DNA of 64,000 nt, taken from positions 1 to 64,000 of the IMG/VR virus record IMGVR_UViG_3300035660_000005. One strand, written 5' to 3'. Shown in pieces: positions 35,141 through 59,957 of the stretch; within the stretch, counting starts at the first letter, position 1, and each line of letters opens with the position of its first letter. The position numbers and the translations under genes were made by a program. The notes below the pieces were generated by a model. It had not been told where the DNA came from. It saw only the letters and a program-made list of their open reading frames with translations, and did not search any database. The DNA is from a virus.

Positions 35141-36115
35141 TTACGGCTCGACGCTGACGTTGTAAGCGATGGCCGTCGCCTTGGCGACTGCGATCCGCGC
35201 GTCGATACGCGTGGTCACGATGAAGCTCGTGACGCCCTCGCGGGGGTCACGGAACTGCTCCATCTTGATGGCCCGACGGAAGCCCGCGTAGAGGTTCATG
35301 CGGTGGGTAAGCAGAACGAACGACTTGTCCGGACTGCCTGGGATCACCTTCATGAGCGGGACACTCACGATGGAGATCCCCTGGTAGGTGAGCGGGCGGG
35401 TGCCGGATAGGATCTCGTCACCCAGAGCAGTGCCGCGCTCAGCGAGCTGGTCGCGGTACTTCTCCTCAAGGATGGTCGGGACGTAGAAGCGCATGTTCGC
35501 GAGGTCGCGCTTGTACATCGGCGGCAGGCTCTTCAGAAGCGTGCCGAAGACGGTCTGGTAGTCCTGGCCGAGAACGGTGACGTCAGCGGCGTTGTTGCCC
35601 GTCTGCTCGCCACAGCGTGCCAGCCAGCCATCCAGCAGGTTGAGGTAGCCGGTGGTGTCGTCGGTGTTGTCGACGAAGGAGTTGTCCATGTCACCGCAGA
35701 TCATGAGCTCCTCGACGTCGCGACCGACACCCTCCGCCACCATCGAGATGATGGTGTCGGCGAAGCCAGCGCGCTCCACCTGGTCCTCAAGGACCTCGTC
35801 GGTGACTGGGACCTCACCGCGAAGCAGCACGGTGGACATCTCGATGACGCCGGTTGTTGGCTTCACACGATTGGCCGTGTCCAGCCGCTCACCCTCGGTG
35901 CCTGCACGCATGATGCGTGCGGAGAAGTCGATTGTGCTCTCCTGCCACTTACTGGCGTTGTTCATGACGGTGCGAACGTCGGGGAGCATCTTCTGCGGCT
36001 TGATCGCCATCCGCAGGAACGTCTGCACCTGCTCAATGGTGAGCGGAGCCTCGCCTGCGCCGCCGAAGTCGGCAAGCGCCAGCGTGGCCTTGCGAAGCAG
36101 CTCTTCGTTTGTCAT
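35141..36115 (-). CDS. Major capsid protein (HK97 fold, XkdG-like)
   Basis: MTNEELLRKA.., EVLED.VE, RDVEELMICGD, LDGWL, RGTALGD. Confidence 0.88.
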   Translation of the reverse strand: MTNEELLRKATLALADFGGAGEAPLTIEQVQTFLRMAIKPQKMLPDVRTVMNNASKWQESTIDFSARIMRAGTEGERLDTANRVKPTTGVIEMSTVLLRGEVPVTDEVLEDQVERAGFADTIISMVAEGVGRDVEELMICGDMDNSFVDNTDDTTGYLNLLDGWLARCGEQTGNNAADVTVLGQDYQTVFGTLLKSLPPMYKRDLANMRFYVPTILEEKYRDQLAERGTALGDEILSGTRPLTYQGISIVSVPLMKVIPGSPDKSFVLLTHRMNLYAGFRRAIKMEQFRDPREGVTSFIVTTRIDARIAVAKATAIAYNVSVEP

Positions 36116-36158: not shown

Positions 36159-36596
36159 CTACTTCAGCTCGAGCGAGTGGCCGGAGCCACGCCGCACGAA
36201 CTTCGTGAAGGCCTTCGCTAGCGACGTCTCGGGGGTGTCGTCGTCCTTGGGTGCCGTGTCGTCGCCCTCGATGCTCTTGCGCAGAGCCGTAGCCTTCTCC
36301 AGCTTGCCCACACGGTCCATCACCGCGTCGAACGCCTTGGTGAGGGTCTCCATGAAAGCGCTCAGAGCAGCGACGGTCTTTGCGACATCGCCCTCTCCGC
36401 CCAGCGCCTTCTCGACGGCATCGATGCGCGCCGTAAGCGCGGTCAGGTCTACCGTCCCCGGCTTTGGGTCAGGAGTGGCGTTGGGATCCGGCGTCGCGTT
36501 GGGGTCAGGGGTTGCGTTCGGGTCCGCCGGCTTCAGGGCGGCCTGAAGTGTCTCGTTGAGTCCCGCCCAGAACCCGTCCTTCTTCTCTTCGGCCAT
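36159..36596 (-). CDS. Scaffolding protein
   Basis: Coiled coil directly upstream of the MCP; DPNATP tandem repeat x3. Confidence 0.65.
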   Translation of the reverse strand: MAEEKKDGFWAGLNETLQAALKPADPNATPDPNATPDPNATPDPKPGTVDLTALTARIDAVEKALGGEGDVAKTVAALSAFMETLTKAFDAVMDRVGKLEKATALRKSIEGDDTAPKDDDTPETSLAKAFTKFVRRGSGHSLELK

Positions 36597-36607: not shown

Positions 36608-37150
36608 TTACTCTTCGCCAGCCGCCTCCACCTTGGCCCGTAGGTCCTCCACGGCCTTGGCGAGCTGGCTGGCCTTGTCCTCGCTGGTGGCCTCGGAGCG
36701 GTAAATGTTCGCCACCTGCTTACAGAAGTTGGGCCACTCCGCGAGGATCGCCTTCTGCATTCCTGGTGTTGGGTACGCGTTGTCTGGCTTCTTGGCCTTC
36801 ATCTTCTCCCACATGGTCTTCAGGAAGTCGATGAACGCCTTCGGTGCGGGGTATCCGTAGCCGTCCGGCTTCTTGTTGCCGTACTGCTCCTCAAGGAACT
36901 TGAGGATCGTGTCGCAGGCGTCCTTCACTTCCTTCGGGACGTCTCCGTCCTTGAGCTCCGTCAGCTGGGCAGTGAGGTCGTTGGCGGCCTTGATGAGTTC
37001 GGCCTCCTGCTTGATGAGTTCGTCCAGCTCCTCGACGCCGGTGATGTCCGCATTCTTCATAACGGCCCATCCCTCCTCTTCGTTCGCGGAATGATCGACG
37101 CCGGACGTCTCGTCCCAGCGCAGGTTGACAATCTTCTTAGCAGTAGGCAT
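36608..37150 (-). CDS. Scaffold-like protein with N-terminal prohead-protease E-x-S-x-V-D-x-x-AN segment
   Basis: IVNLRWDETSGVDHSAN, then helical coiled coil. Confidence 0.6.
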   Translation of the reverse strand: MPTAKKIVNLRWDETSGVDHSANEEEGWAVMKNADITGVEELDELIKQEAELIKAANDLTAQLTELKDGDVPKEVKDACDTILKFLEEQYGNKKPDGYGYPAPKAFIDFLKTMWEKMKAKKPDNAYPTPGMQKAILAEWPNFCKQVANIYRSEATSEDKASQLAKAVEDLRAKVEAAGEE

Positions 37151-37708: not shown

Positions 37709-37735
37709 AGAGAGCAATATTTGGAATTTGATTTA

Positions 37736-38921: not shown

Positions 38922-39052
38922 TGTGAGCCTCCCTCAACCTCTTCGCCTTCTCGATTATAAGGCGCCACAGCAGGCGAACGCTAGCCCCAGAGACCCTGTG
39001 CGAGCGCGCCTTCGTGCGCCGCTGTTCCCTGCGTTCGTTACGTGTTGTCACG

Positions 39053-39271: not shown

Positions 39272-39337
39272 AGACCACCTAGCGACGTCGCGCCGAACCG
39301 ATGTGACTGGTACACTATTTCCGGCACCGTATTCCCC

Positions 39338-40137: not shown

Positions 40138-40313
40138 CGTGCAACCTCCTTCAGGCTGATGACTGCTATTGGAAGACAGCCGGGGCATACGATGCCCTTA
40201 CCCGCGGGTGGTGGGTAGCCGTCGGTGCCGTGGTGAGTGTGCTCGCCGCACAGACAGCAGTCGCCTTCCACGCCGCCGGTAATAGTGTCTTCCTTGCTTG
40301 CCGTTGGTTCCAT
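40134..40313 (-). CDS. Small zinc-ribbon protein (59 aa)
   Basis: Hand-translated; CCLCG..VCPGC. Confidence 0.45.
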   Translation of the reverse strand: MEPTASKEDTITGGVEGDCCLCGEHTHHGTDGYPPPAGKGIVCPGCLPIAVISLKEVAR

Positions 40314-40380
40314 CTCTTCTCTCTACTCCCTTGTCCTCGTTGGGTGTCGACTACCGCATCTACCGGTTGACGCCTGCGCC

Positions 40381-40746
40381 TCAGCCGCTGTTGTAGATGT
40401 CGTCGACCAGTGCGCGCGCTCCGGTCTCGAGCTCGCCCTTGTCGCGCAAGGCAATCATGCGGTTCACGAACTCAGTCTTGCGCACCTCGACGCGGTCGTG
40501 GCGACGCTTCGCCTCGTCGTACTGTGCCTGGACGCGGGCCGTGCGACGCTCGGTCTTGCGTACCGGGTCGTGCGTGCCGCAGTAGGGTTGCTCGCCGAGT
40601 GGTGCGTTCTGGGGATCGGCCAGGTCGAGTCGGGGGTCGTGGCGCATGACCGTGGCGTTCTTCTCGCACCGCGAGGAGTCCCAACCTCGCCAAACCTTCT
40701 CACTGCACTTCACCGGCCGTCCGTTGTTGTCCACTATCTTGGCCAT
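40381..40746 (-). CDS. Hypothetical protein (C..C..CGTHDP)
   Basis: RBS; operon chain. Confidence 0.6.
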   Translation of the reverse strand: MAKIVDNNGRPVKCSEKVWRGWDSSRCEKNATVMRHDPRLDLADPQNAPLGEQPYCGTHDPVRKTERRTARVQAQYDEAKRRHDRVEVRKTEFVNRMIALRDKGELETGARALVDDIYNSG

Positions 40747-40747
40747 C

Positions 40748-41191
40748 CTACTTCACCTCCTCCAGTTTGAGGTCGCTCACTCGCACCTTGCCGAGCGTGT
40801 CGTCTACGAGCCAGTGAACGACGATCTTGTTGCCGCCGCAGGCAGCCGAGTACCCGTAGTTGGCTTGCTCTCGGCTGAAGCCAACGACGATGCCGACCGT
40901 GTCGATGTGCGCGGTCGCGTAGCGGTGGTGGTGTCGAGAAACCTCGCTGGGCCTCAGCACCACTCGGTCGCCCTTCTGGAACCCTGCCTGTCGAGGCCAC
41001 CTCGTGCGCCGTGTGACCACGCCGACACCGTCGCCATCTGCGGCCGTGCCAACTGGTTCTGGCCCGTATTTGTTGGCCACGCGCGCGTCCATTTCGAGTT
41101 CGCGGCCGCGCTCGAGTCCGCACTCGTAGCACTGGCTTGGGTCGTGCTGCGAGCCCTCTCCGCGTGCGATCGGATCGTTGAGCTCAAACAT
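40748..41191 (-). CDS. Hypothetical protein (SH3/KOW-like C-terminus)
   Basis: FQKGDRVVL..GIVVG. Confidence 0.55.
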   Translation of the reverse strand: MFELNDPIARGEGSQHDPSQCYECGLERGRELEMDARVANKYGPEPVGTAADGDGVGVVTRRTRWPRQAGFQKGDRVVLRPSEVSRHHHRYATAHIDTVGIVVGFSREQANYGYSAACGGNKIVVHWLVDDTLGKVRVSDLKLEEVK

Positions 41192-41192
41192 C

Positions 41193-41444
41193 TTAATTGA
41201 CCTCCTCCGTCATGAGCCGCCACCGTCGGGTCACCTCGCCAAGCTCTTCGTTAGTGACCTCGCCGCGCTCCCAACGTTGGCGAGTCTCTTGGAGCTGCCT
41301 GGTCACCTCTTCGAGCGTGGTCGTCTGGCGGAGGGTCTCGCGCTCCTGCCGTCTCTGCTCGAGCTCGCGCTCTTTCACACGGCTCTCCCAGAAGCGACCC
41401 ATCTCCTCCACCTCTGTCCTCCGCCCTTTGAAGTTCCCTGTCAT
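41193..41444 (-). CDS. Hypothetical charged protein
   Basis: First gene after promoter cassette copy 3. Confidence 0.55.
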   Translation of the reverse strand: MTGNFKGRRTEVEEMGRFWESRVKERELEQRRQERETLRQTTTLEEVTRQLQETRQRWERGEVTNEELGEVTRRWRLMTEEVN

Positions 41445-41500
41445 CTCCTCTTACCTCCTACATCTATCGTCCAGGATAGGAAGACAGAGGTCAACGGGTT
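41442..41500 (-). promoter_or_regulatory. Sigma70-type promoter + RBS cassette, copy 3
   Basis: TTGACC-17-GACGAT; near-identical to copies 1 and 2. Confidence 0.7.
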
Positions 41501-41549
41501 TGGCGACCAATTTCCAAGAAATTTTCACAGTCGCTCCGTGGAATAAGCC

Positions 41550-41660
41550 AAGTAAAGAGGGTCTAATATATCCTGATTCCACAGCCTGCCGGACTATACA
41601 GTCGCACGAATGCCGACCGTAGAATCGTGTCCTAGTGCGGCAGGTTCCATTTAGCTGTGA
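41550..41660. repeat. Degenerate intergenic repeat, copy B
   Basis: Matches 15548-15659. Confidence 0.75.
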
Positions 41661-41734
41661 TAGGAAGTTCAGGGAGGTCCACAGCTAAACGGTTGGACGC
41701 TGTCGCCTCTAACATTCGTAAATGAAATCTCAGA

Positions 41735-41803
41735 TATTGCTCTCTAACCCGTTGACTCCTATCTTCCTATCTGGTACAATAGGTGTGGAGGTAGATGGAG
41801 ATG
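41735..41803 (+). promoter_or_regulatory. Sigma70-type promoter + RBS cassette, copy 4 (divergent)
   Basis: TTGACT (41752)-17-TACAAT (41775); shares ATATTGCTCTCTAACCCGTTGAC with copy 2. Confidence 0.8.
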
Positions 41804-43743
41804 AAAGAGAAGAAGTCGACTTGCAAGGCCTGCGGCCACACCGACAAACACTCTTGGCTCTCGGGTTGTCACGCAGGTTGTGGATGCAGCGAGGTCAAGT
41901 AAGATGGCCTCGCGCGTTTACGTGAGCACAAGACAGTTCGAGCTCAGCCACGGACATCGACCGCGCGGCTGCGGTCACTGGGCTTTCACATGCGGCGACG
42001 AGTCCGAGCTTCACTGGTTCAACGGGCTCTACAGTAGGGCCTGCTGGACAGCCAAGCACGAAGCCAAGATCCTCGGCTTCGATCTCGTGACGGCGCAGCC
42101 GTAGTAAAGGAAAGAGGATGGGCAAGTTCCATGGTCAGTGCCTCGAGGACACGGTCTGCAAGCAATGTGGGCAGCGGTGCTGCAAGTGGTGCCGTGAGGG
42201 GTTCCCTCCGTTGTGTCCCGAGTGCGCCTTGATCCAGCGCCGGGAGCGCGCGGTGGCAGCCAAGAGGTTGGCCGCGGCTTACTGGCCGCAGAAGGAGTCG
42301 CCATGACTGAAGCGCGCTGCAAGCATGGCATGATAACGGCCTACTGCGCGTTCTGCCGCAACCCACTGGACACCATCCACCAGGCGGCTGTGCTGTCCGC
42401 TGAGCGCGTGCGCGAGCGGCGAGACAAGCGCTACGCGAGCGCGGACGTTCGCGACCTGTGGAAGGCCATCGGGTTCCTCGCAGCGCGTGCCACGATCTCT
42501 ATCGTAGACCGCGACGAGGATGGAGCCGCCGAGTGTGAGGACGAGTACCAGATCGCAACCGGCGAGACCATCCACGTTCCGGTCAACCCAACGAAGTGGG
42601 GTCACTCGATCACGTTCGAGTTCGAGGCGACCAATTACGAGTTGGCGATCATCGGCTTGCCGCCGTCACTGCTCGAGTTGGCCACGCGCAACGGCACAAC
42701 GCACAGACTACTGAGCAGCACCGCCTTGGGTTGGGCACTCTTCACCTTGGGCTTCCGCGTGGGAGCTCAAGACGTCGACCGCGTTCTCGCCAATGTGCCA
42801 CCGGAGCACTTGGATGTCGTCACCCTCGGCGCTCTCTGCGGTATGGAGAGGTAGGAGAGGTTGCCATGCACAGGCCGCACGCTGTGACAGTCGAGGTCAA
42901 CATCAAGGACAACAGAGCCGAGAAGGGCTTCCGTACCGAAACACGTACGGTGCACATCAGCGCCCGCAACCAGGCCAATGCTGAGCGGGCAGCGCTCAAG
43001 AGGTTCCCAGGGTGCAAGGTCGTCGAGGAGTGAGATGGGAAACATCCGCGAGCCCGACATCCGCGAGCCCTATGTGAGCGAGCTGGTGAACCTCTACCAC
43101 CTGGCTAAGACGGCGGTCGGCGACCAGCGCTCCTCTCGCATGATATGGGCCGCCAAAGCATTCCACAAGGCACATCCTGAGGTGCCCACTATCCAGGCGT
43201 ACAAGCGGCTGGACAAGGCGATAGGCCAAAAGGGGGTACTGAACTGATGATCGGGCTTGTGCTGTTCTGGGTCTTCGCCGGAGTACTTGTTTGGGTAGTC
43301 GGCGCACTGGCTACGACCAAGGTAGCCTACCGTATAGAGTTCATCGACTACTACTCCGATCCAGTTTTCGTCGGCATAGTAGTGATGGCGTGGCCAGGCT
43401 TCGCGTGTGTCGGCGCCGCAGTCGGCGCCGCGTGGCTGCTCGGCCAAGCTGCAATGTGGGTAGACGAGCACAGCGGATGACCGGCTACGACTTCGAAGAC
43501 CGCGGCAAGACGCTCTACTTCCCAGGCTCACACTGGGGCAAGCACAACGAGTTGGCTGTGCATGGGCGTAAGGACGACCTCGTTGTCGTGAAGGTGCCAG
43601 CACTCACTGCCTACATCAGTCGCGGCACCGGGTCACACTACTGCCCAGCCGAGTTCCTAGTACTGCAAAAGCGAGGAGCAAGCGCGATGCCAGGCTACAC
43701 GCACGCAGAGCTTCTCATCGCAATTCCGCTGAGGGTGGTATGA
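41801..43743 (+). other. Chain of small hypothetical early ORFs (41801-41902, 41904-42104, 42118-42306, 42303-42854, 42866-43033, 43035-43247, 43247-43480, 43477-43743)
   Basis: Tightly coupled starts and stops with RBSs downstream of promoter copy 4; several are Cys/His-rich, one has TM helices. Confidence 0.6.
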
Positions 43744-44393
43744 AGTACGACTACGGCTTCCCGCTCATGGTCGACATCGTGCCGGCCACGAAGCCACCTG
43801 AGAAGGACGGCTTCTGGATCCAGCACTACGAGATCACCGAAGAGGAGGTGCACCGACAGCACTGCCGCCTCGACTGGACAATGCGTGGTCTCGAGCCTGG
43901 CACCTACTGCGTGCTACACCAGCGGCGTGATGGACACGACAGTCAGTGGATGTCCGACACTTGGCTCGAACGGTACACCAACGCGGACTTCCTCAAGAAG
44001 GCAACTGGCCACGTCCTTGTCATCGGACTGGGCATTGGCTTGTTACCTGTGGCACTCTGCCGCAAGGTGGATGTGGAGTCTGTCACTGTGCTGGAGATCG
44101 AGCCGCAGGTAATCGCTTTGGTGGAGCCGCACATCCGGCACCCGAAGCTCCGCCCCGTTGTCCAAGGCGACGCCTTCGAGCCACCACCGGCACTGCTCAG
44201 TGTTCGGTACTTCGACGCCGTCTACGCGGACATCTGGGCCGACATCTGTTCCGATAACTGGGAGACAATGAAGCCGTTGCTAGCCCTCTACCGGAAGGCC
44301 GCTAAGAAGGGCGCGCTGGTGACGGCGTGGCTCAAGGATTATATCCAAGCCGAACACAAAGCAACACGGCAACGGTACGGAGGGTACTGGTGA
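43740..44393 (+). CDS. Class I SAM-dependent methyltransferase (spermidine-synthase-like fold)
   Basis: VLVIGLGIG, VLEIE, QGDAF, FDAVYADIW. Confidence 0.75.
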   Translation: MKYDYGFPLMVDIVPATKPPEKDGFWIQHYEITEEEVHRQHCRLDWTMRGLEPGTYCVLHQRRDGHDSQWMSDTWLERYTNADFLKKATGHVLVIGLGIGLLPVALCRKVDVESVTVLEIEPQVIALVEPHIRHPKLRPVVQGDAFEPPPALLSVRYFDAVYADIWADICSDNWETMKPLLALYRKAAKKGALVTAWLKDYIQAEHKATRQRYGGYW

Positions 44394-45799
44394 TGAAGCA
44401 AGTACGGGCAGAAGGTATCCCGAAAAGGGCAGCGCTAATCCCTCTGGGCTCCCCACTCCTGGAAGTTAGGGAAAGAGGTAGACTTGTGAGAACGCTTTGG
44501 CTCGAGCGACCGCCCGCCGGCATCGGTATACAACTGGTCGACCCGCATCGGCAGCAACCTTTCAGTGTGTGGTACCGAGGCCAGATCCACTACTTCTGCG
44601 CGACGCGCACAGAAGCAGAGGGGCTGCTCGCTGAGCTACAAACAAGTCCGCCAGCGGTGGAGGAGCTCGAATGAAGATGGCGATTGACCGCGACTACCTC
44701 ATGTTCGCGCTTACGAACGCGCCGCACGGTGCAGAGATTGACGGCATGCGCATCCTCCGCCGGAGCGGAGACCTGGAGATCACTTGGCACATGCCCGACG
44801 ATCCTATCGCCTGCGGCAAGATCTTCCTCGGGTCGGGAAGAGGCATCGAGGCATTTCCATGGGCAGCTGGAGGGAAGACAGCGGCGCCGCCACCGAGCCG
44901 ACCTCAGACGGTCGAGAGGGGAATGAAGTAGAGATGAAGTCCGAGTCTCTGACGATCCGATACCTCAAGCAGGTCGACAGTCTGCTTGAGCAGGCCTACG
45001 AGAACACAAGTTACATCAAGGTGCGGGCGATCATCACCGGCGCACGTGCACACGTAGCCATGGCGCTCGACAACATCGCCGCGTACAAGGCTGGATCACG
45101 TGGCACCACACAGTAAGCGCCGACGAAATCCAGGCCCCATTGGCCGGCCACCAGAAGACCGCAAGGGCGTCTACGCCAAGCAGAAGGCGAAGGCAGACCA
45201 AGCGGTGCTGGACAAGCTGGCACGTCGACGGATCTTGCTGCCGACCCCCAGGCAGGTCATACAAGTCAACAAGACGAGGAGTGACAAAGCATGAAGGTGC
45301 TGACCGAAGCCCAGATCGTGGACGCGATGCGCAGTTCGTTGAAAGAGCGCCCACTCGGAGCGATGGGCACATGCATCGTGGATGGAGCGCGCGTGATCTA
45401 CGAGCTTGCTATGCGGCTGGGTCACACAACCGCCCGTGAACAGATGGCCTTCGCCAAGCAGTGCATGCCGAAGGACACGTGGAAGGAGCGAGCATGAAGG
45501 AAGAGTCGCACCTCGTCTACATCGTTTGGCGCGACAGCGTCGGCGCACCTCACTACGTGGGCTGCGATTGCGAAGACATACCGGCGACTATCCTGCTAGA
45601 GGGCGTGGCCTGGATCGTGAACGAAACCGAACAGGATCTGGTCGTCGCGGCCTACCGTTCGAACGACGGCGGCTGGATGGATGTAGTCGCGATTCCACGA
45701 TGCGCCATCGAGAAGATCTACCGCATCCAATGGCCCCAACCGGTGCTGCAGGTCGAAGCGATTAAGCTGGATGCAGACTTCCTCGGGGCACCGGACTAG
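44393..45799 (+). other. Chain of small hypothetical ORFs (44393-44674, 44671-44931, 44934-45116, 45100-45294, 45291-45497, 45494-45799)
   Basis: Translationally coupled ORFs; the last converges on the polyprotein with a shared CTAG. Confidence 0.55.
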
Positions 45800-48700
45800 C
45801 GGGTAGTCACGACTGGCTTGCGCTTCGCGAAGCCACCCATACTGAGCCCGCGAATCTGCCCGCTCTTCACGAGACGCCAGCCGGCGTCGTTCCAGAGTAC
45901 GCCCATCCACACGCTGTTGGCGGGAATGGTCGTCTCCTTCGACTTACCGTCAGGAAGTGTGAGCTTTGTCGTGACCTCCCAAGGCCACGCGACGATGTCG
46001 ACCCACTCACCAACGGGGATGATCCCTGCAGCGCCGTGCTGAAGATAGATGCGTCGGTCGCCGGCCTGCACGTAACCCCACTGTCCCTTCTGGAGCTCGT
46101 CTGCCATGATGAACTCGTCGTGGGCGTCGAGCTCTGGGTCACGCGGCATGTTGGTAGCCTTGTAGCAGACACCGAACGTGTACTGCTCCTCAGCGGCCTT
46201 CTCGAGCACGGTATACTCGAACGGCTGGGTGTCGCCACTCTTGGCGACCTCCGCCTGGTCGGTGTGGCTCGCACCGGCAGCAAGCGCGAACATCTGTCCG
46301 TCCAGGCCCACCTCTCCGAACAGGAGCTCGCTCTCGTTCCAGTTGCGCAACAGGTCGTCGTCCACGTTGACAAGTACCAGCTTCTTGACGCCGGCAGACT
46401 TCAGGTCACGCGACGCATCAAGCGCGGACGGCAGTGCCCTGCCGCCTGGTAGGTACTGCGTGTCCTTCCAGCCGTGCGCTCCGGCGAAGACAAGGTCAGC
46501 GTCCTCCACCATGTAGCGGTCGGGGCCAAGTGGTCCCCAGATGATGGTGGTGCGCTTCTCTTCCTTCTCGTCATAGACTGCGATCTCGAAGCAGACCGCT
46601 CCCTCTTCGCCAGCACAGCGGCCATAAGCACCCCATGGGCGCACGTACACACGGTCTTGTGAGTAGCCTGCATCGTAGCCAGTGCACAGCTCCACGCCGA
46701 GTGTCTCTGCCTGCTCCTTGATGTCCGCCAGATGCGTGTTGTACGGGTTGGTGATGAACCACGCGTCCACTGCCTTCGGCAGCTTCTCGAGTAATCCTGG
46801 TCCGCCGTCGAACACGAACGACTTGTTCGCCACCTGAACAAGCAGTCCGTACGGGGAGATGCGCGACTCTACCTGCTCGCCGCCGGTGCCGAGTAGTGTC
46901 ACCTTGATGTCGGCCGCCTTGACCAGACGTGGTCCGTTCTCGTCCAGTACCAAGTCGAACAACGGCGTCGCTTCTGGGTCGCCACGTCGGTCGAACTTCA
47001 CGGCGGGCACAACCCCTGCCGAGCCTGCGATCAGTGTCGCGATGCCCTGAGCCAGACTTGGACTCCAGTACTCGGGTTCGCGGTCAGCCGCCTCGCGCAC
47101 TACCAACTCGATCGTCTTCGAGCCGGCCATCGGCTTGTACGAGATGAACGCTGGGATGACAGTCGGCACGCCCTTGATCTGCCAGACCCACTTGCCGTGC
47201 ACCTGTCGGTACAGTGTGTTCCCGCCACCGTGGTGCTTCGAAACGGTGTCGGACTTGACGATGTTGGGGTGCTCCTCGACCCACTTCTTGGCGCTGGTGA
47301 GTGTCCACTCGTCGTCCGTCGGGAACCTGAGCGCCTGGACTGTGGTGGTCTTCTCCCCCTTGAGCTTCCCAATCACGGCGAATACTCGAGGCTTGGTAGC
47401 CTGGATGGTGATGCGTCGGAACGAGTCCTGCTCGAAGTCACCAGGCTCTCGCACCCTATGTCGAATCTCGTTCTCCGTCGTCTCCCAAGCCTTTGCCAGC
47501 ATCTCCTCGGTCTCCTTCTTTACGACGCCGGCAAGCACCTTCCACTGATCAGCGTCCTCCACTTCCAGTGCCGCCAACAGCGCGTCGCCACTCTTTGGGA
47601 TGTCGATGAAGTACGGACCATGGGCACCATCACTCCACACCAAGTGTGGTTGACGCTTTCCGCGTAGCTCCTTGATGACGTCGGCGAGCTTGTGCTCCTC
47701 GGCGTAGGGCGTGTCGGACTCAGGCTTGCTGACGAGCCACACACGCCGACCACCCATCGGTGCGAACGTGATCTGGTAACGACCCTTCACCTTCGAGCCG
47801 CTCAGGAACACCTCGAACATGTGCTCACGCGCCACACCCAGTTTGTACGTGCCTCTGTCGTACACAAAGAACTTGGCCCATGCCTGTGACGTGGCGCCGA
47901 CCTCCTCCGGCTCCGAGATTGCCGGCTTGCCGACGCCAACGTTCAGCCACTCCGTCGGCTGTGCTAGCTTCCACGAGCCCTGAAGGCTATCGTCTGTCGG
48001 CAGGTTCTGGAGACGGTCGCCACCGGCAGCCTTCACCTCAGACGCCTTGCCCAGGAATGTTGTGAAGCCCCACAGTGCGTCCTCGCCCTGCAAGCGGAGG
48101 TCGCCGTGCACCGAGTGGTCGGTGTCGAGCAGGGTAGACTCACTGGTGCCCTTCGCTTCATCCTCAGTCAGGCCACGCCAGTGGTGATGGTAGACGAAGC
48201 GTCCACGACCCGAGCGTGGCAGTGCGTCGAACCAGCTCTTCTTCCAGTAGGCAGCTACCTCGCCGGCACGGCCCTCTTCCTCGTGTGGGCCTGCCTTCGC
48301 GAGTGAGAACATCAAGCTCTGCGGCACGAACTCGAAGTCGACTACCTTCATCCCTCTGCGCCTTGAGCGTGTAGCGACGCCTGGTACCGACCACAACTCG
48401 GCGTTCGGGTCGCAGTCATTCGACGCCATATGGTAGTCGTCGCAACGCTCGCAGAGGATGATTGTGCTCTTCTGCGTCGGCTCCATCTTCTCCTCGCGGA
48501 GTGCGCCGTAGCGGCGAGCCAGATCGATTGCTTGCTGCACCGTGTACGCTGGTCGGGAGCGATCAGGTCCCTGCGGTGTCGGCTTGCCCCACGTGAGCGT
48601 TCCGTCGCTCAGTAGGATCATCTCCTCCACCGTCACGTTGAGTGTGTCGCCCTCGCCCGCCAACTGTGTCGGCGAGACGAACGTCTTGCCCAGTTTCTGG

Positions 48701-50073
48701 TAGGGCTTGCCGTCGATGTCCACGACACGACCCTTGGGGATTCCCTCGCTCGGTTCGCGCAGTGCACAGTCGTAAGTGTAGCCGTTGGCCACCTTGTTCA
48801 CGCTCAGGACGCGTGCCTTGATCTCCACCGTGCGCTTCGTCTTCGCGTAGTCGTTGGTGGAGCCAAAGCTGTACGGCATGTTCGGGTCTCGCGTCACCAC
48901 ACCCTCGATCGGGAGGTCGCGCCCGCCAGGCCCACCGTAGTTGAGCAGCCGGTTAGCCATCGACTTCAGTGACGCCTCGCTCTTCGCTTCCTGCTGTGGC
49001 AGTGCGACGAAGCGCGCTCCGAGCGTCGAGGCTGCTCGCTTGATCAATGCGTATCGTTCACTGAACGGCTGCTCGTGCACATCGGCCCCGTCGAAGTAGA
49101 CCATGTCGTACAAGAACACGACCGGCGTGGCGCCCTCGAACTTGTTGGCGAGCAACGAGATCAGCTCTGGACGCGCCACGTACTTGCCACCCGAGACCGC
49201 CTGGAGCTCGCCCTCGACCACCATGGACGTCTTGCACTTGCGTAGGGTGTCCATCAGTGAGGGCACGTCGTACTCCTGCTTGGCGTCCTCGGAGTAGATC
49301 ATCGCACGACCGCCAGCACAGTGGATCAGCGCACGTAGTCCGTCCACCTTCGGTGACACCAACACAGTGCCCTGCTTGTCCACAACCTTCGAGGCCCAGT
49401 CGTCCCACAACTCCTTGACGGAGACGAAGTCGGTGTAGTACTTCATGGACGGCTTCTGTGCGGTGTACTTGTCGAAGGGGTTGATGCCGGCGCTCTTGAA
49501 CCGAGGAGCCCTGTTCTCTGGCCCGAACCGAGCACGACGCTTCTCGAGGCTCGCCGCCTTGACGAGCTTCGCCTCGCCAGTCGTAGTGCGCAGCACAAGG
49601 TCGAACACCGGCACGTACTGTCCCTCGTGTGGACCCTGCGGACTGAACAGTAGGTGCAACTCCTTGCCGGTCTTGTCAGGATCGAAGAAGCGACGCAGCA
49701 GTAGCATGAGCGACTCACGGTAGTAGTTTGGCACATCCCCATCTTCGCGGATGAGGATATCCAGGTCGTGGGCAGCAGCCAGTCCCTCGCGCGCAGCGCT
49801 GCCGACCACGCTCACGTAGTCGGGAACCACGACGACGTCGCTGGCCGCCTGCTTCGGGAGCTTCGCCTGATCCAGCCCAGGGTGCACGTTGTGTTCCATG
49901 CCACGCTTCTCCATCTCGGCAACGATGAAGCTGTGGGCATTGACGATGGTCTCGATGGACGCACCGTTCTCCTTGGTGTTGGCGAACCACTGGTGCGTGC
50001 GGCGATGCAGCGAGAGTAGCTCGTCATCCGGTGCCTTCTTCAGGGCAGCCGGGGTGATCTCTTCGAGGGTCAT
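45796..50073 (-). CDS. Multidomain polyprotein: nucleotidyltransferase + ATP-dependent DNA ligase + LigD-like 3'-phosphoesterase + MBL fold + XkdF-type prohead protease
   Basis: VGS..DLDIL; PKVDG, EGEL, YDMVYFDG, EGVV, AKTK; FVYHHH..HGDLRL..YDRGTY..KGRY; LLGTGG..FDGG; DAHDE..LQH..GLSMGG. Confidence 0.85.
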   Translation of the reverse strand: MTLEEITPAALKKAPDDELLSLHRRTHQWFANTKENGASIETIVNAHSFIVAEMEKRGMEHNVHPGLDQAKLPKQAASDVVVVPDYVSVVGSAAREGLAAAHDLDILIREDGDVPNYYRESLMLLLRRFFDPDKTGKELHLLFSPQGPHEGQYVPVFDLVLRTTTGEAKLVKAASLEKRRARFGPENRAPRFKSAGINPFDKYTAQKPSMKYYTDFVSVKELWDDWASKVVDKQGTVLVSPKVDGLRALIHCAGGRAMIYSEDAKQEYDVPSLMDTLRKCKTSMVVEGELQAVSGGKYVARPELISLLANKFEGATPVVFLYDMVYFDGADVHEQPFSERYALIKRAASTLGARFVALPQQEAKSEASLKSMANRLLNYGGPGGRDLPIEGVVTRDPNMPYSFGSTNDYAKTKRTVEIKARVLSVNKVANGYTYDCALREPSEGIPKGRVVDIDGKPYQKLGKTFVSPTQLAGEGDTLNVTVEEMILLSDGTLTWGKPTPQGPDRSRPAYTVQQAIDLARRYGALREEKMEPTQKSTIILCERCDDYHMASNDCDPNAELWSVPGVATRSRRRGMKVVDFEFVPQSLMFSLAKAGPHEEEGRAGEVAAYWKKSWFDALPRSGRGRFVYHHHWRGLTEDEAKGTSESTLLDTDHSVHGDLRLQGEDALWGFTTFLGKASEVKAAGGDRLQNLPTDDSLQGSWKLAQPTEWLNVGVGKPAISEPEEVGATSQAWAKFFVYDRGTYKLGVAREHMFEVFLSGSKVKGRYQITFAPMGGRRVWLVSKPESDTPYAEEHKLADVIKELRGKRQPHLVWSDGAHGPYFIDIPKSGDALLAALEVEDADQWKVLAGVVKKETEEMLAKAWETTENEIRHRVREPGDFEQDSFRRITIQATKPRVFAVIGKLKGEKTTTVQALRFPTDDEWTLTSAKKWVEEHPNIVKSDTVSKHHGGGNTLYRQVHGKWVWQIKGVPTVIPAFISYKPMAGSKTIELVVREAADREPEYWSPSLAQGIATLIAGSAGVVPAVKFDRRGDPEATPLFDLVLDENGPRLVKAADIKVTLLGTGGEQVESRISPYGLLVQVANKSFVFDGGPGLLEKLPKAVDAWFITNPYNTHLADIKEQAETLGVELCTGYDAGYSQDRVYVRPWGAYGRCAGEEGAVCFEIAVYDEKEEKRTTIIWGPLGPDRYMVEDADLVFAGAHGWKDTQYLPGGRALPSALDASRDLKSAGVKKLVLVNVDDDLLRNWNESELLFGEVGLDGQMFALAAGASHTDQAEVAKSGDTQPFEYTVLEKAAEEQYTFGVCYKATNMPRDPELDAHDEFIMADELQKGQWGYVQAGDRRIYLQHGAAGIIPVGEWVDIVAWPWEVTTKLTLPDGKSKETTIPANSVWMGVLWNDAGWRLVKSGQIRGLSMGGFAKRKPVVTTR

Positions 50074-50090: not shown

Positions 50091-51023
50091 TTAGACCGGA
50101 AAGCTCTCCATGGGTGGAAGCCAGCCCTTCGTGTTGGCCCCGATGTCGCAACGGCAGTGGGGGTGCAGTGGCGGGTACTCGCCACCCCACTCGAAGGAGT
50201 TGCCAATCTTGACCCAGCCCTGACCAGCAGCTTCGATACAGTAGTCGCACACCCGAGAGATGGTCGCTGCCGGCGAGCCGGCGGCCGTCAACCAGCGCCG
50301 CTCCTTGATGCCGTTACGCACCATCGTCTCGTGCGCTGTGTTGCCGTAGACGCGGGCCGTCTCTGTACGAGCTACCGTCTCCGCCCACTTGCGTCCAGCC
50401 TCGGGCATCGCGTGCAAGATCTCGGACGTTACTTCGGGCACGGTCTTCGGACGTGCTGGGTTCGCCGCCTCCAACGCGATGCGCGCCAACTCCTCAGCCC
50501 ACGTGCCGGCCGAGTCCTCCAGGTAGCCGGTGACCTGCCCGGACAGTTCTGGGTACAACTCGTGGAACATCAGCTCGGTGTCTGTCCACCTGTAGCCACC
50601 ACCCAGTTGCTTCTCCACGAGCTCGGCCCAAGGTGGCTTCGTTTTCATCCCCAACTGCCGACGGACCGAGCGCTCACCCAGCTCGGCGGTGCTCGCCAAC
50701 TCGGACATCAGTTGACGTGCCGGCTTGTCGAGCTTGAGCTTCTGCTCGATGTGCTTGGCCAGCGCTGCCTTTGCCTTCGCCGGTGCGCGTGCCTCGTCAG
50801 GGAACTTCTCCCAGAGGGCGCGAGCGATGCGCGCCAGCTCTGCTGACGAGACCTGCTCGGCGAGGCCGCCGTAGTACTCCTTCGCCGCTCGTCTTACCTT
50901 GGCCTCAGCCGCGAGCCGCTGCTGGTAGCGTGTCGCCCATTGTCCGCTCGGACTGGCCGCCAACCAGACCGCCTCCAGACCACGGTGCAGTCGCTTGACT
51001 GTGTCCCAGCCTACCTTCATCAA
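50091..51023 (-). CDS. MuF / SPP1 gp7-like head morphogenesis protein
   Basis: VARTETAR, WLTA, VCDYC, PPLHPHCRC. Confidence 0.85.
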   Translation of the reverse strand: MMKVGWDTVKRLHRGLEAVWLAASPSGQWATRYQQRLAAEAKVRRAAKEYYGGLAEQVSSAELARIARALWEKFPDEARAPAKAKAALAKHIEQKLKLDKPARQLMSELASTAELGERSVRRQLGMKTKPPWAELVEKQLGGGYRWTDTELMFHELYPELSGQVTGYLEDSAGTWAEELARIALEAANPARPKTVPEVTSEILHAMPEAGRKWAETVARTETARVYGNTAHETMVRNGIKERRWLTAAGSPAATISRVCDYCIEAAGQGWVKIGNSFEWGGEYPPLHPHCRCDIGANTKGWLPPMESFPV

Positions 51024-52766: not shown

Positions 52767-54254
52767 TTACTCGTCCTCCACTGTCACGTTGCCGTCCACG
52801 ACGCGAGCGTCGTCAGCCATCGCGTCTCCGACCGTCACCCTCGCATCGCCGATCGCCACTCCGCCGGCTACCAACTTCACGTCGCCTACAGCGGCCCGTC
52901 CGCGCATCCGGATCAGTGGTGTCGGGAAGACCAGCGTCAGTGTAACTGGGGTCGGAGTCAGTTCCAGCAGCTTGTAAAGAAGTGGCACTGGCACGTCGAT
53001 CCTAAGCGTCACTGGCTCGGGTTGTACAGTCAGGGCCTTGTAGACCGTCGGCTCCGGTAGTGTGAGCTCGATGCTGACGGCCCCTGGCGTGAGGGTCAAC
53101 GACTTGGAGATCTCGATTGCCGGGAACGTGAGCTCGATTACGACCGAGTCGGGCGCGACGACTCGTGGTTCGTAGACCCAACCGCCCAGTCCCGCGTAGT
53201 GGTAGACCACACCGTTGGTGTTCACGAAGTCGTGTGTGCCGACCTCGAAGTTGGTGGTGAGGAACTCCTGGATGGCGTCAGCTACCGGTTCTGGTGCATC
53301 GTTACATCGTGCACAGGCGTTAGAGGCCATCGTGTCGGTACGGAACATGCACTCGCGCGCAGTCTTCGGATCCTTCAACATCGTGAAGCGTGGGATAACC
53401 TCGCCCAAGGTGACGATCCTGTCGTCTACGCCGTTACCAGGATACGAGCCCTGCTCAGCGATGTTTCCTCCGAGTAGGAGGTAACAGTACTCGGCACCAT
53501 CTTGGTTGAACAGGTGGCTCGTGCCCTCGACCGTGAAGCCGTCGACGTCGAGCGACTTGATGGATGTGCCGACGTAGGGGTCCGAGTCCTGTGCGCCAAA
53601 GAATGCCGCGGCCTCTCCCGCTGCAATGGACAGGGTTCGCCACATCGGTTGCACCCAGAAGCCACCTGTGCTCTTGAAGACTGCTCCGAACTTGGGCGCG
53701 AAGCCCGCTCCTGTGAACGAGCGCAGATCGGTCCCATCCCCGATGTACTTGTCGATTCGGATCCGACTTGGTACTTCTCGCAGTGCCAGAACGTGGTAGA
53801 GCTCACCCGCCTTGTTCGTGGCGATATCGAGCGCAACCGAAAAGCCGTCCACGTCAAGCGAGGTGATGAGGTTCGGATCAAGACCTCCAGCGCCGCCCAG
53901 CCACGCGGCCAAGCCAGCCGGAAAGTCCTTGTGCGAGAGAATCGGTGGCTCGGTAAGAAGAGTACTGTTGACGACGATCACGAACTGAGGTGGGAAGCCC
54001 ACACCGGTAACGTGGTGGTCGCTGTGTCCAGTCCCCACGTAGGTCATCGTCTTGACACCAACAAGTCCACCCACGAACGCGGACGGCAGCACAAGGGGAA
54101 TCGCTACCGGTGCAGGGGTGAGGATCTTCAGCCCGATCCAGACCAACGGCTCGGGCAGTGCGACGCCTATAACAACGGGATCCGGCAACAACGTCAGCGT
54201 CGCCACGCCGCAAGGCAGCATCTCGATAAGCCGGCGAGTCGTACCTCTAGCCAT
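52767..54254 (-). CDS. Fibre-like structural protein with three Y-x-G-x-G beta repeats
   Basis: YVGTG/YIGDG/YPGNG repeats with GF.P.F and SLDVDGF.V; Pro/Val-rich stalk repeats. Confidence 0.6.
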   Translation of the reverse strand: MARGTTRRLIEMLPCGVATLTLLPDPVVIGVALPEPLVWIGLKILTPAPVAIPLVLPSAFVGGLVGVKTMTYVGTGHSDHHVTGVGFPPQFVIVVNSTLLTEPPILSHKDFPAGLAAWLGGAGGLDPNLITSLDVDGFSVALDIATNKAGELYHVLALREVPSRIRIDKYIGDGTDLRSFTGAGFAPKFGAVFKSTGGFWVQPMWRTLSIAAGEAAAFFGAQDSDPYVGTSIKSLDVDGFTVEGTSHLFNQDGAEYCYLLLGGNIAEQGSYPGNGVDDRIVTLGEVIPRFTMLKDPKTARECMFRTDTMASNACARCNDAPEPVADAIQEFLTTNFEVGTHDFVNTNGVVYHYAGLGGWVYEPRVVAPDSVVIELTFPAIEISKSLTLTPGAVSIELTLPEPTVYKALTVQPEPVTLRIDVPVPLLYKLLELTPTPVTLTLVFPTPLIRMRGRAAVGDVKLVAGGVAIGDARVTVGDAMADDARVVDGNVTVEDE

Positions 54255-56630: not shown

Positions 56631-58199
56631 CTAGGCTCCTCGGTTGTCTTCCTGACTGGGGCTCTCGTTCCCACCTGGAATCTCTCCCGTCTCCATGACC
56701 TCGCGGACGACCTCGTCGACCTGCTCCAGTCGAGTGAGCACAGCGTCCTGTGTGCGCTGCATCGCAGCCATCATGTCGACACTCTGAGCCATCGCCATCG
56801 CCATCCCTGCGCCAGCAGCTCCCTTCGACTGGAGGTACTCGGCGAGTGTCACGTTCATGTCGTCACGGGCCGGCAGACCGAGCTTCTCGCGACCCTCGTT
56901 CAGCGTGACCATGTTAGTGCGCACAAGGTTCACGGCGTTGGCGATGTCCGCCGTCTCGTCGCTGACGTCAGGCGCCTCGAACTCTACGCGCCACGCCACG
57001 GTCTCCTCATTGATCCGTCGTGCTCGAGCGTACTCGGTACGGATGAACCGTCCAAGTCGGTCGCAAAGAATGGACTGCGCCGGAGTCACGACGGCGTTCT
57101 TGTAGATGCGGTTGATGGCCACGCTGACGTTGCCACCAAGCATCCCGCGCTGGACGGTACCCAATCTGTCAGGAGGCATACGATGTGCCTCGAGGATTCG
57201 TGCGTCGGTGACGTCCATGAGCTTGGTGAAGTGCATGTCGTTCTGTACGGCCGTCAGTCGTTCGACCTTGAACTGCGCGGTGCCCGACAACGGCACCATG
57301 AGGTTACGGTGCGGGTCCTTGTGCTGGACCTTGAGCTGCTCTTCGAACTCGTCCATGAACGTCTCGATCTCTGCGTCCTTGCCGGTCAGTCCCGACACGA
57401 CGAAGATGTAGCGAGGCTCTCTCGCGTTGGAGAAGAACTTGATGTTATAGTCTCTCGCTGCGATTGCGAGCGTAATGTAGCCCACGCCCGAGATGTAGCC
57501 TGGAATCCCGTACCACGAATTGCGTCGACTCGTCTTCACGAACACCAGCATCTCGTTGGCGAGCTTGTCGAAGCCTGTGCCTGGGGGCGCTGTGCGACCG
57601 TTGCTTGACAGTACTGCCACGTCACGCAACGGCTGTCCAGTGGACACGTCCACTCCCCACCGCTTGAACCAGACCTGCCGCGTGTTGCGGATCTGTACGT
57701 AGAACATACCGTTCCGGTGTGCACGGACTGTGTGTGCCGGCACGTGGTACAGTCGTTGCACCACGCCATTGATGTCGCGTGCTGCCTCGAACATGCCCCA
57801 CCCGACGGTCTCGTAGTCAAGCCAGACGGCGTTCAACAGTTCGATGAACGTCTGCTGCTCGGTGATCTCGTCCAGCCAGTTGTAGATGTCGGCTTCCTGT
57901 TCAGGAGGCGCGCTCTCGTGTTCGGGCACCAGCTTCGGCCCATTGGCGATCACATCCATGGCCTTCTGTTCTAGCGAGGCCGAGTGGGGAGGGTGGGACT
58001 CTGCAAGGAGCACAAGCTGCTCCATGGAGTAGGGTGGCCTCTGAATTGCGACACCGTAGCTGGCGATCTGCGAGAACGGATCCTCTAGCAACTGCTTGGA
58101 GGGGAACTCGGACAGGCGCTCCAACTCTTCGCCGCCGTAGCCTCCGATGATGCGTGCCTTGAAGATCCTGCTACCCTGGGCCTCTGTTCGTGCGACCAT
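56631..58199 (-). CDS. Portal protein (PBSX XkdE-like)
   Basis: LYHVPAHTVR, WYGIP, YNIKFFSN..P, NDMHF, AHRMPP..LG, TLNEGREKLGL. Confidence 0.9.
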   Translation of the reverse strand: MVARTEAQGSRIFKARIIGGYGGEELERLSEFPSKQLLEDPFSQIASYGVAIQRPPYSMEQLVLLAESHPPHSASLEQKAMDVIANGPKLVPEHESAPPEQEADIYNWLDEITEQQTFIELLNAVWLDYETVGWGMFEAARDINGVVQRLYHVPAHTVRAHRNGMFYVQIRNTRQVWFKRWGVDVSTGQPLRDVAVLSSNGRTAPPGTGFDKLANEMLVFVKTSRRNSWYGIPGYISGVGYITLAIAARDYNIKFFSNAREPRYIFVVSGLTGKDAEIETFMDEFEEQLKVQHKDPHRNLMVPLSGTAQFKVERLTAVQNDMHFTKLMDVTDARILEAHRMPPDRLGTVQRGMLGGNVSVAINRIYKNAVVTPAQSILCDRLGRFIRTEYARARRINEETVAWRVEFEAPDVSDETADIANAVNLVRTNMVTLNEGREKLGLPARDDMNVTLAEYLQSKGAAGAGMAMAMAQSVDMMAAMQRTQDAVLTRLEQVDEVVREVMETGEIPGGNESPSQEDNRGA

Positions 58200-58547: not shown

Positions 58548-59957
58548 CTACAAACCCCGAGGCCTGTGTAGTCGACTGATCGTCCGCTTACCTCCAGCGA
58601 TCTGCCACGCGAGAGCTAGTGTGCATATCTCATCCGGTGGGTGACCTGACCCGTAGAGGTCGTCCGTTGTGACCGCTCGATGTAGCTCCGTCAGTGAGTT
58701 CAACGCTGGCCATTCGACCTCGCCGTTGTCCACCGCCGTCTCGTAGTCGAGGTACAGCTTCACCTTCGACGCCGGCGTCATGATGTAGGGGGTCACCTGT
58801 GAGATGGGAATGTCAAGGTAGGTGTTGATTACGTCGCCGATGCCCGTGGCGTCGTGGATGGCGTGAGCGTGATACTCCTTGCCCCACTCGTTGTAGAGCT
58901 TCACCACTTTCGGCCATGGCCACCTGAAGCAACGCACCCAACGCACGAGACGTGGCGGCGTAACGTCGTACCGCACGACAGCCACGACCGAGAGGTCCAC
59001 CTTGCGTGCCCAGTCCGCAGCCACCACGTAGTCACCGCCGTCCACCGGATCCTCGAACAGACACACCTGGTTGAGGCCGTCGTCGACAGGAGCGCCTGAG
59101 AACATCGCCTCAAGGGCTTCCCTCGCGAACAGCATTCCACCCTCGTCTGGGGCCTCGAGGTCGTACTCGGTACGCCACATCCGACCGGTCACCTGGATGC
59201 GTTTGGAGGCGATGTTCTCGGGCAGAAGCCACGACCCAGGGTTCTTCGGGTTACACAACGTTTCCTTATAGCACCAGCGCCGGACGGGCCATCCCTTCTC
59301 AGCGGCGCGCTTGAGTAGCTCCGTCATCGTTCCGGCCTCGTGGTGGTGCGTGGACGCAAGGATGGTCTGTGCCGGTCTTCGCGGGTCGGTGACCATCGTC
59401 TGGCCCATCAGGGCGTCGATGATCTCGACGTCGCATTCTTCCGCCTCATCGATGCGTAGACGCTGAGGGTGAGGACCACGTGCGGCTCTCGATGACGCTG
59501 TGAGGGCTTGCATGGTGTTGCCCATGAGTGTGCGCGTCCACGTACGCCGAGGCTCGTTGGCCAAGAGCCAATGCGGCGCCGTGACAGCCTCGAGCTTGCC
59601 GTCGACCGTCTCCTCTGCGCTATGGCCCCAAGCCTTCTCAGCAGCTTCATGTGCACGCCTGGACTGTTCGCCCGAGCCGCCCGCCAACACGACGTCGAAG
59701 CCTGAGATGAGCTCGATGAGTGACAAGCCGGCCAAGGCCCACGTCTTGCCGCCAAAGCCTCTGGATGCAATCCAGATGATGATTGGCGACTTAGCGAAGT
59801 AGGCCTCGATGATGGCGTCGGCAGGACTCGTGTGGTCGGGGCAGCATGCCTTACGGGGATAGCGTAGACCGAAGTAGAGCTCTAGCTGGGCTAGCAACTC
59901 GTGCGGAGTTTGGGGGGCTCGGTACACGACGGGCAGGTTGTCGTCGTTCGACGTCAC
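58548..59957 (-). CDS. terL: Terminase large subunit
   Basis: Walker A SRGFGGKT, Walker B LRIDEAE, LAST, nuclease AADWAR..D, HDATGIG, PDEIC.LALA. Confidence 0.9.
   Translation of the reverse strand: MTSNDDNLPVVYRAPQTPHELLAQLELYFGLRYPRKACCPDHTSPADAIIEAYFAKSPIIIWIASRGFGGKTWALAGLSLIELISGFDVVLAGGSGEQSRRAHEAAEKAWGHSAEETVDGKLEAVTAPHWLLANEPRRTWTRTLMGNTMQALTASSRAARGPHPQRLRIDEAEECDVEIIDALMGQTMVTDPRRPAQTILASTHHHEAGTMTELLKRAAEKGWPVRRWCYKETLCNPKNPGSWLLPENIASKRIQVTGRMWRTEYDLEAPDEGGMLFAREALEAMFSGAPVDDGLNQVCLFEDPVDGGDYVVAADWARKVDLSVVAVVRYDVTPPRLVRWVRCFRWPWPKVVKLYNEWGKEYHAHAIHDATGIGDVINTYLDIPISQVTPYIMTPASKVKLYLDYETAVDNGEVEWPALNSLTELHRAVTTDDLYGSGHPPDEICTLALAWQIAGGKRTISRLHRPRGL

Follow-up and report, generated by a model that had tools for sequence, protein, structure and literature searches.

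A lysine-containing motif in the head-module proteins of an uncultured virus, and its probable role as the cleavage code of an XkdF-type protease fused to a 1425-residue polyprotein

The window analysed here, 64 kb of a 78,297-bp record of an uncultured virus (IMG/VR record IMGVR_UViG_3300035660_000005, positions 1 to 64,000; CheckV completeness 73%), encodes on its minus strand a siphovirus head module. One open reading frame (ORF) of this module, P0001, specifies a polyprotein of 1425 residues that combines several nucleic acid enzymes with a C-terminal XkdF-type prohead protease. A short motif, made of a hydrophobic residue, any residue, a Lys and then an Ala or Ser (hxK[AS], where h is L, V, I or M), recurs in the polyprotein, in the scaffold proteins and at the major capsid protein's N-terminus. 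The excess is specific to Lys and restricted to proteins of the head interior, copies lie in linkers and are conserved, and the protease has its key residues intact. From these sequence patterns we conclude that the motif probably marks sites at which the serine protease fused to the C-terminus of P0001, of the HK97/assemblin clan, cuts after the Lys.

We compared the number of hxK[AS] motifs in the proteins of the window with the number expected from composition, and used as controls the same motif with R, E, D or Q instead of K and the reversed motif. P0001 has 12 copies against 3.02 expected (Poisson p 8e-5), and neither its R, E, D and Q versions nor the reversed motif departs from expectation. 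The scaffold-like protein of 145 residues has five copies (0.46 expected) and not one of the R, E, D or Q versions. There are three copies each in the capsid protein (0.41 expected), in a scaffold-family protein encoded by the ORF at 36608-37150 (P0023; 0.65 expected) and in a 495-residue ORF (0.52 expected), where an internal repeat yields two of the three. Among the ~85 ORFs of the window the enrichment is confined to these head-module proteins: the ~80 remaining ORFs together have 24 copies against ~20 expected. A sequence-only reading of the window had first pointed to the motif and suggested a comparison with non-virion proteins. The echoes that it had reported outside the polyprotein are also present, i.e., LLRKAT in the capsid protein, VEKA, LEKA, LRKS and LAKA in the scaffold (which also has LTKA), and LIKA and LAKA in P0023 (which also has MQKA).

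The domains of P0001 are, in order, a nucleotidyltransferase (NTase), an ATP-dependent DNA ligase with an OB fold and a Zn ribbon, a LigD-type 3'-phosphoesterase, a small domain, a degenerate NTase copy, a domain with a metallo-beta-lactamase (MBL) fold, and the XkdF protease. Pfam identifies the ligase (DNA_ligase_A_M, residues 229-413) and the protease (Peptidase_S78_2/XkdF, residues 1289-1418). Two AlphaFold models built on homologue alignments, with folds compared by Foldseek, add the N-terminal minimal NTase, the phosphoesterase, the small domain with the degenerate second NTase half, and the MBL domain, which is of the YhfI/RNase Z type. The phosphoesterase matches the archaeal LigD phosphoesterase 3p43 (E 2.2e-6, TM 0.79 on the target), and its His/Asp/Arg motif, HHHWRG...HGDLRL, is readable in the sequence. 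The C-terminal domain matches PF14550 with 27.8 bits (cut-off 24), covering positions 5-124 of the 126 of the profile, and PHROG families of head maturation proteases match it likewise; a search of PDB sequences with this domain gave no match. In an alignment of 51 sequences (A2), D1316 and H1346 are invariant and S1411 (in GLSMGG) is conserved at 90% or more; H1346 and S1411 are candidate catalytic residues. The scan of head-module ORFs in the window gave no second protease, so the "head protease" to which the sequence-only reading had attributed the cleavage would be the last domain of P0001 itself. The ORF, its protease domain and the seven sites are given below, with an arrow for the bond after the Lys and with model confidence as the predicted local distance difference test (pLDDT).

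50073..45796, minus strand: 1425-residue head-module polyprotein ORF, P0001 (translation, Pfam, structure models, Foldseek)
45814..46191, minus strand: XkdF-type (Peptidase_S78_2) prohead protease domain, residues 1295-1420 (Pfam, alignment A2)
49552-49566, minus strand: LVK172↓AA, in the linker after the NTase; segment 166-193 with pLDDT<50
48289-48303, minus strand: LAK593↓AG, in the linker before the phosphoesterase, followed by an acidic stretch; segments 533-600 and 586-599 with pLDDT<50
47485-47499, minus strand: LAK861↓AW, in a lone helix after the phosphoesterase; model helix 843-873, pLDDT 91 falling to 69
47248-47262, minus strand: IVK940↓SD, at a linker and module boundary; start of segment 938-989 with pLDDT<50
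46912-46926, minus strand: LVK1052↓AA, in a low-confidence hairpin strand (pLDDT ~61), three residues before MBL strand 1
46234-46248, minus strand: VAK1278↓SG, in the linker between MBL and protease; segment 1267-1294 with pLDDT<50
46192-46206, minus strand: LEK1292↓AA, immediately before the protease core and inside the Pfam XkdF model

Each of the seven domain junctions of P0001 carries one of these sites, and all seven are where the sequence-only reading had found them. Its claim that all fall in interdomain linkers holds for five, K172, K593, K940, K1278 and K1292, which are in linkers with pLDDT<50, but K861 is in a helix and K1052 in a hairpin, both of them linker-like elements. Linkers with pLDDT<50 make up 247 of the 1425 residues and contain 5 of the 12 motif matches (binomial p 0.04). 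The LEK1292 element may be strand 1 of the XkdF fold rather than a cut site.

The other proteins with the motif are encoded further along the minus strand.

37150..36608, minus strand: 180-residue scaffold-family protein (P0023), three hxK[AS] motifs
36596..36159, minus strand: 145-residue scaffold-like protein, five hxK[AS] motifs
36115..35141, minus strand: XkdG-type major capsid protein with the HK97 fold (phrog_1623 at 1.6e-68; tblastn matches to XkdG-type capsid genes)
36086..36097, minus strand: LRK9↓A10 at the N-terminus of the capsid protein, in LLRKAT at residues 6-11

The N-terminal L-L-x-K-A of the capsid protein hardly varies among 121 homologues with 50-80% identity, where the residue after the bond (P1') is A in 93% of the cases. 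A search of PDB sequences with the capsid protein gave no match. P0023 begins with a strand of the form VSxVDxxAN...hhxK, here ETSGVDHSAN...WAVMK↓N. The scaffold genes of the phages TM16, VH2, DLP5 and RcTiptonus and of the metagenomic relative L004 (3658-4299), with L010-L013 also compared, begin with this strand too, and in ORF12 of phage psiM2 it comes directly after the catalytic Ser. Docking of the scaffold to the protease may be a function of the strand. In TM16, VH2, DLP5 and RcTiptonus the gene of the protease core is separate from the strand-bearing scaffold gene, which lies just after it, and in L004 the polyprotein gene ends with the protease core and is followed directly by the strand-bearing scaffold gene. 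Separation of the protease core from the strand is thus the usual state in this group, and we rejected the idea that a split protease is a peculiarity of this phage.

Because the motif was defined on the window itself, we tested it on 13 phages that have nothing but the XkdF/XkdG head type in common with it: Rhizobium TM16 and L338C, Vibrio VH2_2019, Stenotrophomonas DLP5, Rhodobacter RcTiptonus, Bacillus 0105phi7-2, Clostridium P21, Methanobacterium Drs3 and psiM2, Rhodococcus Trina, Streptomyces Faust, Pseudomonas PaMx31 and the metagenomic L004. In these phages, the protease and scaffold proteins have 65 hxK[AS] motifs against 16.8 expected (p 3e-19); the E, D and Q versions are flat in the same proteins and the R version is mildly raised (14 versus 6.2). 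The bodies of their capsid proteins are at expectation (7 versus 7.3), and the first 16 capsid residues include the motif in 7 of the 13 phages (0.34 expected), with N-termini such as LLQK↓AD, IIQK↓AD, LIKK↓AD, LLAK↓AD, IIEK↓AD and VNK↓AV. In the scaffold proteins of six of these phages, K is the only one of the 20 residues enriched at the motif position, V or I are preferred at the third position before the bond (P3), and A, S and G at P1'. The replication in 13 other phages shows that the signal is a property of this type of head module and not of the window. The most extreme case is the XkdF protease-scaffold protein of the cultured Clostridium phage P21 (L014 3211-4470), with 16 copies in 419 residues against 1.5 expected. 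Two of the phages have Arg in place of Lys in the capsid protein, Rhizobium L338C (IVQR↓ADLALADL; L019 4498-5457) and Pseudomonas PaMx31 (LMKKR↓ADLSIG; L016 4483-5511), and their scaffolds show no excess of hxK[AS] (3 versus 2.0 and 1 versus 0.9, respectively); the specificity of the protease may have shifted in them.

A megablast search of deposited phages with the P0001 ORF gave no match, a tblastn search picked up no more than the XkdF domain, in phages of Arthrobacter and Microbacterium, and one ligase match, and a search of viral contigs for related loci gave no relative. The family of P0001 is large, with 2073 matches among representatives of clusters at 50% identity, of which 233 have E<1e-30. 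We gathered 163 relatives from this search and from an earlier homologue search, and mapped them with hidden Markov models made from the domains of P0001. Their core architecture is NTase, ligase, phosphoesterase and XkdF, with variable inserts: family 4 uracil-DNA glycosylase (UDG), Dam and S-adenosylmethionine-dependent methyltransferases, LigT, MBL and Mu gpI. The XkdF domain is recognised in 107 of the 163 and is the last recognised domain in every architecture shown. Conservation across the family is highest in the LigD-type phosphoesterase. Minimal NTase-ligase-phosphoesterase-XkdF proteins of the family have 733-890 residues (e.g., P0034, P0047, P0061). At least 233 clusters (50% identity) have such a LigD-like end-repair set anchored to a head protease.

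In these 163 relatives, hxK[ASQ] occurs outside the domain cores at 7.1 per 1000 residues against 3.1 expected, and inside them at 3.4 (2.7 expected); neither the R nor the E control deviates in either place. The motif Lys lies 5-9 residues after the NTase in 52 of 123 relatives, within 5 residues before the ligase in 30 of 105, and 6-15 residues before the phosphoesterase in 65 of 150. There are 86 motif positions 5-19 residues after the phosphoesterase over 120 domains, a motif within 5 residues before the start of the MBL domain in 11 of 18 relatives, and a motif Lys before XkdF at position -5 in 56 of 96 and at position -15 in 30 of 96. These peaks at the borders are partly circular, since the limits of the domains were drawn between the motifs of P0001. 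When P1' was left free in the search, A, S and Q were enriched at each border. Some positions are more widely conserved in a looser form: h-h-K at the equivalent of K172 after the NTase in 86 of 123 relatives, and the upstream h-x-K at the equivalent of K1278 in 71 of 96. The Lys before the phosphoesterase sits within an acidic, Gly-rich linker across the relatives, and h-x-K-[AQ] precedes the acidic stretch EEGGE-TRGE at a variable distance in 116 of 150, regardless of which domain lies upstream. The position of K1052 is occupied by R in P0040 and P0097.

The last three modules of P0001 begin with a degenerate second copy of the C-terminal half of the NTase (residues 946-1044, window 46939-47236; ...FDLVLDENGPRLVKAA), in front of the MBL domain. 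These three modules, i.e., the second NTase half, MBL and XkdF, also exist as free-standing proteins, P0026 (497 residues) and P0040 (522 residues), and P0026 begins at the residue aligned right after the IVKS of P0001. Given the second NTase half and the free-standing proteins, the 1425-residue ORF appears to have arisen by fusion of two ancestral head-module genes, with the join at IVKS↓D.

If the motif is a cleavage code, the polyprotein would be incorporated into the procapsid along with the scaffold proteins, and its XkdF domain would cut after the Lys within exposed segments of the form [V/I/L]-x-K↓[A/S/G/Q], at some or all of the sites. The 145-residue scaffold, with its five sites, and the 180-residue scaffold-family protein would be degraded, and the capsid protein would lose nine N-terminal residues. 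Severing of the linkers would give an NTase of ~172 residues, a ligase of ~421, a LigD-type phosphoesterase of ~268, two small pieces, an MBL-fold enzyme of ~226 and a protease of ~133. These domain-size pieces would be packaged by staying trapped in the head and would be delivered to the host with the DNA. The sequence-only reading had argued that the ORF would be cut to make enzymes small enough to eject. We found no support for this argument, and it is not needed because phages eject far larger proteins, such as the virion RNA polymerase (vRNAP) of N4 and gp16 of T7.

Several observations weigh against cleavage, at some of the positions or in general. The P1' residue in the relatives is also Q, G or T. 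Within P0001 alone the enrichment in linkers over structured domains, a check proposed in the sequence-only reading, is borderline (the p of 0.04 given above), and the five other matches (start residues 11, 674, 825, 1098 and 1401) are inside folded domains with a block-mean pLDDT of ~90 or more. A four-residue motif alone thus cannot define a site or a junction, and the attribution of the motif to a Lys-specific head protease is supported indirectly, by the specificity for Lys, the restriction to the head, the position at junctions, the conservation, the replication and the conserved Ser, His and Asp of the C-terminal XkdF domain. That the motif was defined post hoc on the same proteins is an objection mostly answered by this replication. 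The copy after the NTase (YDLVLR, 7-9 residues, h-h-K) and the one before XkdF (I-L-K-A-D-E-E-K-Q-I-V-Y-G), which are among the positions conserved best, lie at a fixed distance from their domains and have strand-like patterns. In stand-alone XkdF proteases the latter element is at the very N-terminus, so that a cut there would remove next to nothing. In the subfamily of P0009 the Lys before XkdF is an Arg and the site after the NTase is missing, and the capsid protein on the same contigs keeps LEK↓A. Covariation of capsid protein and polyprotein was examined in this group only; as the two positions do not co-vary there with the capsid site, we treat them as possibly structural, and they may be structural or dispensable. 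The only virion data that touch on the matter come from Bacillus phage 0105phi7-2, for which mass spectrometry gave many spectra of a capsid peptide starting at residue 12 and none of residues 1-10 (PMC10219371). The sequence at this boundary is IIEK11↓A12. The authors inferred the loss of ~10 capsid residues and noted that the status of K11 could not be settled, as trypsin prevented an exact assignment (PMC10219371). This is weak evidence for cleavage after Lys, because trypsin also cuts after Lys and the missing tryptic peptides are very short.

Some of these observations would be expected if the motif were not cut at all and served as a docking or structural element, a short strand ending in Lys by which scaffold and cargo are attached to the shell or the protease. 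We consider this unlikely. Such a segment might cap domains, or bind the groove of the protease or the capsid interior in the manner of the cargo-loading peptides of encapsulins. The fixed distances and h-h-K strand patterns of the copies after the NTase and before XkdF speak for docking, as do the copy at ~1050 modelled as a hairpin strand, the stand-alone proteases that start with the element, and the changes from K to R at two positions of the polyprotein independently of the capsid site. The strand of the scaffold genes that follows the catalytic Ser in psiM2 ORF12 suggests binding to the protease. On the other hand, most copies in P0001 are in low-confidence linkers and not in domain cores, the site before the phosphoesterase is not at a fixed distance and sits in an acidic, Gly-rich linker, and the preference for small P1' residues is typical of a scissile bond. 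Scaffold proteins with 5-16 copies also look like substrates with degradation sites rather than proteins with binding sites; gp22 of T4 is an example of a scaffold with such degradation sites.

A rather improbable alternative accepts the cut after Lys in the scaffold and at the capsid N-terminus, and leaves the polyprotein largely intact, perhaps losing the protease alone, so that the motifs at its junctions are partly inherited strand ends and partly bystanders. The strongest independent statistics do come from scaffolds and capsid N-termini, the linker enrichment within P0001 is borderline, the site after the NTase is missing in some relatives, and other packaged giants, e.g., the vRNAP of N4, remain unprocessed (PMC5512222). 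Against this stand the family-wide peaks at all domain borders, the Lys-specific 2.3-fold excess between domains, the presence of one site at each junction of P0001, and the natural split of P0026 exactly at IVKS. Chance or composition is very improbable: scaffolds are helical, with many K, A, L and E residues, and the motif has just three specified positions, so Lys/Ala/Leu-rich helices and linkers could yield it without function, but hxE[AS], hxD[AS] and hxQ[AS], which are equally likely, do not exceed expectation in these proteins, K is the sole enriched residue in the scaffolds of six phages, the pooled excess in independent phages is as strong as given above, and capsid bodies and non-head ORFs are flat. 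Helical periodicity was rejected as the cause of the scaffold enrichment for the same reason, since hxE, hxD and hxQ are flat. We also rejected recombination microhomology as the source of the conservation at the junctions; nothing was in its favour, and relatives with at most 50% identity show the conservation of the junctions in their protein sequences.

P0001 resembles in kind the phage polyvalent proteins of Iyer et al. 2017 (J Bacteriol, PMC5512222), whose assemblin-like peptidase is always C-terminal and was predicted to process the protein during virion assembly. Like them, P0001 is a giant mosaic head-module protein encoded next to a MuF gene, with several nucleic acid enzymes and a C-terminal peptidase; it has seven domains in one polypeptide, and its relatives have mosaic architectures. 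That study gives no cleavage motif, and in searches of its text HK97, LigD and fusions with prohead proteases did not come up and ligases did so only as RNA ligases; neither the NTase-ligase-phosphoesterase-XkdF core nor the Lys code is in it. The general idea of self-processing polyvalent proteins is already in the literature, and what is gained here is incremental and not a new principle. Our literature search found no paper on protease-ligase fusions, and in the literature searched there appears to be no description of a Lys code that XkdF-type proteases also apply to fused cargo.

Codes of this kind are established for other head proteases: L/I-x-E↓ for gp21 of T4 and S/A/G-x-E↓ for gp175 of phiKZ and gp245 of SPN3US. 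In such systems one short motif is used across the capsid, the scaffold or core, and packaged ejection proteins. The system of P0001 differs from these in having Lys and not Glu before the bond (P1), in its protease (XkdF/S78_2 and not S77), in the fusion of the cargo to the protease, and in that its cleavage is deduced from sequence. A basic P1 is known from HK97, where gp4 (MEROPS S78) cuts gp5 after Lys103. The Pfam name Peptidase_S78_2 places XkdF next to this HK97-type S78 family, and the two presumably share a clan. HK97 removes a delta domain of 102 residues and has no separate scaffold and no fused cargo, whereas here about nine residues would go. In Staphylococcus phage 80alpha a protease of a different lineage cleaves at Phe↓Ala, not after Lys. 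A capsid propeptide of ~14 residues is removed by the head protease of that phage, with a separate scaffold present, in the account cited in PMC10219371. Bacillus phage 0105phi7-2 (gp5/gp6) has in common with our system an XkdF-type protease fused to a scaffold-like C-terminal region with 10 hxK[AS] motifs against 1.45 expected, and an XkdG-type capsid protein; it differs in that the protease carries no enzyme cargo, and its authors proposed no cleavage motif (PMC10219371).

We put forward more tentatively the wider proposal that [V/I/L]-x-K↓[A/S/G] is a portable cut code common to the XkdF-type proteases in phages of Proteobacteria, Firmicutes, Actinobacteria and methanogens, such that any enzyme module placed between two linkers of this type, upstream of the protease, is packaged, released within the capsid and injected. 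If so, the code could be the reason why ligase, phosphoesterase, UDG, methylase, LigT and MBL modules are shuffled freely in over 200 lineages, and polyproteins anchored to the protease would be a programmable system for capsid cargo. Should the code be real, it would be the first specificity for the widespread and uncharacterised XkdF (PF14550) family of head proteases, it would make the ends of mature proteins predictable from sequence in many phages, and it would provide a testable model for how phages load, release and inject enzymes of DNA repair and anti-restriction. Trypsin masks precisely these cleavages, and virion proteomics needs other proteases.

Further genes of the head module lie upstream of P0001.

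59957..58548, minus strand: large terminase
58199..56631, minus strand: portal
51023..50091, minus strand: MuF-like minor head protein, directly upstream of the 1425-residue ORF

The gene order is terminase, portal, intervening ORFs, MuF and polyprotein, with the scaffold genes and the XkdG-like capsid gene further downstream. This context, with MuF adjoining P0001 and portal and terminase further upstream, is the virion-packaging context of polyvalent proteins. The genes of the polyprotein, the strand-bearing scaffold protein and the capsid protein lie side by side in the relative L004, where the stop of the polyprotein is followed after 3 nt by the start of the next ORF. In the window, ~8.6 kb with small genes (37150-45796) separate the polyprotein from its scaffold partner and include a plus-strand block at 42213-45799; this stretch resembles an accessory island that was inserted into the module. 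The portal (56631-58199, minus strand) has its sole motif match near its N-terminus, IFK↓A at residues 12-15, a single case that could be due to chance. The repeat of the 495-residue head-module ORF (52767-54254, minus strand), which has weak matches to tail fibres and DUF7483, reads ELT[FL]P...h-x-K-[SA]-LT[LV].P.

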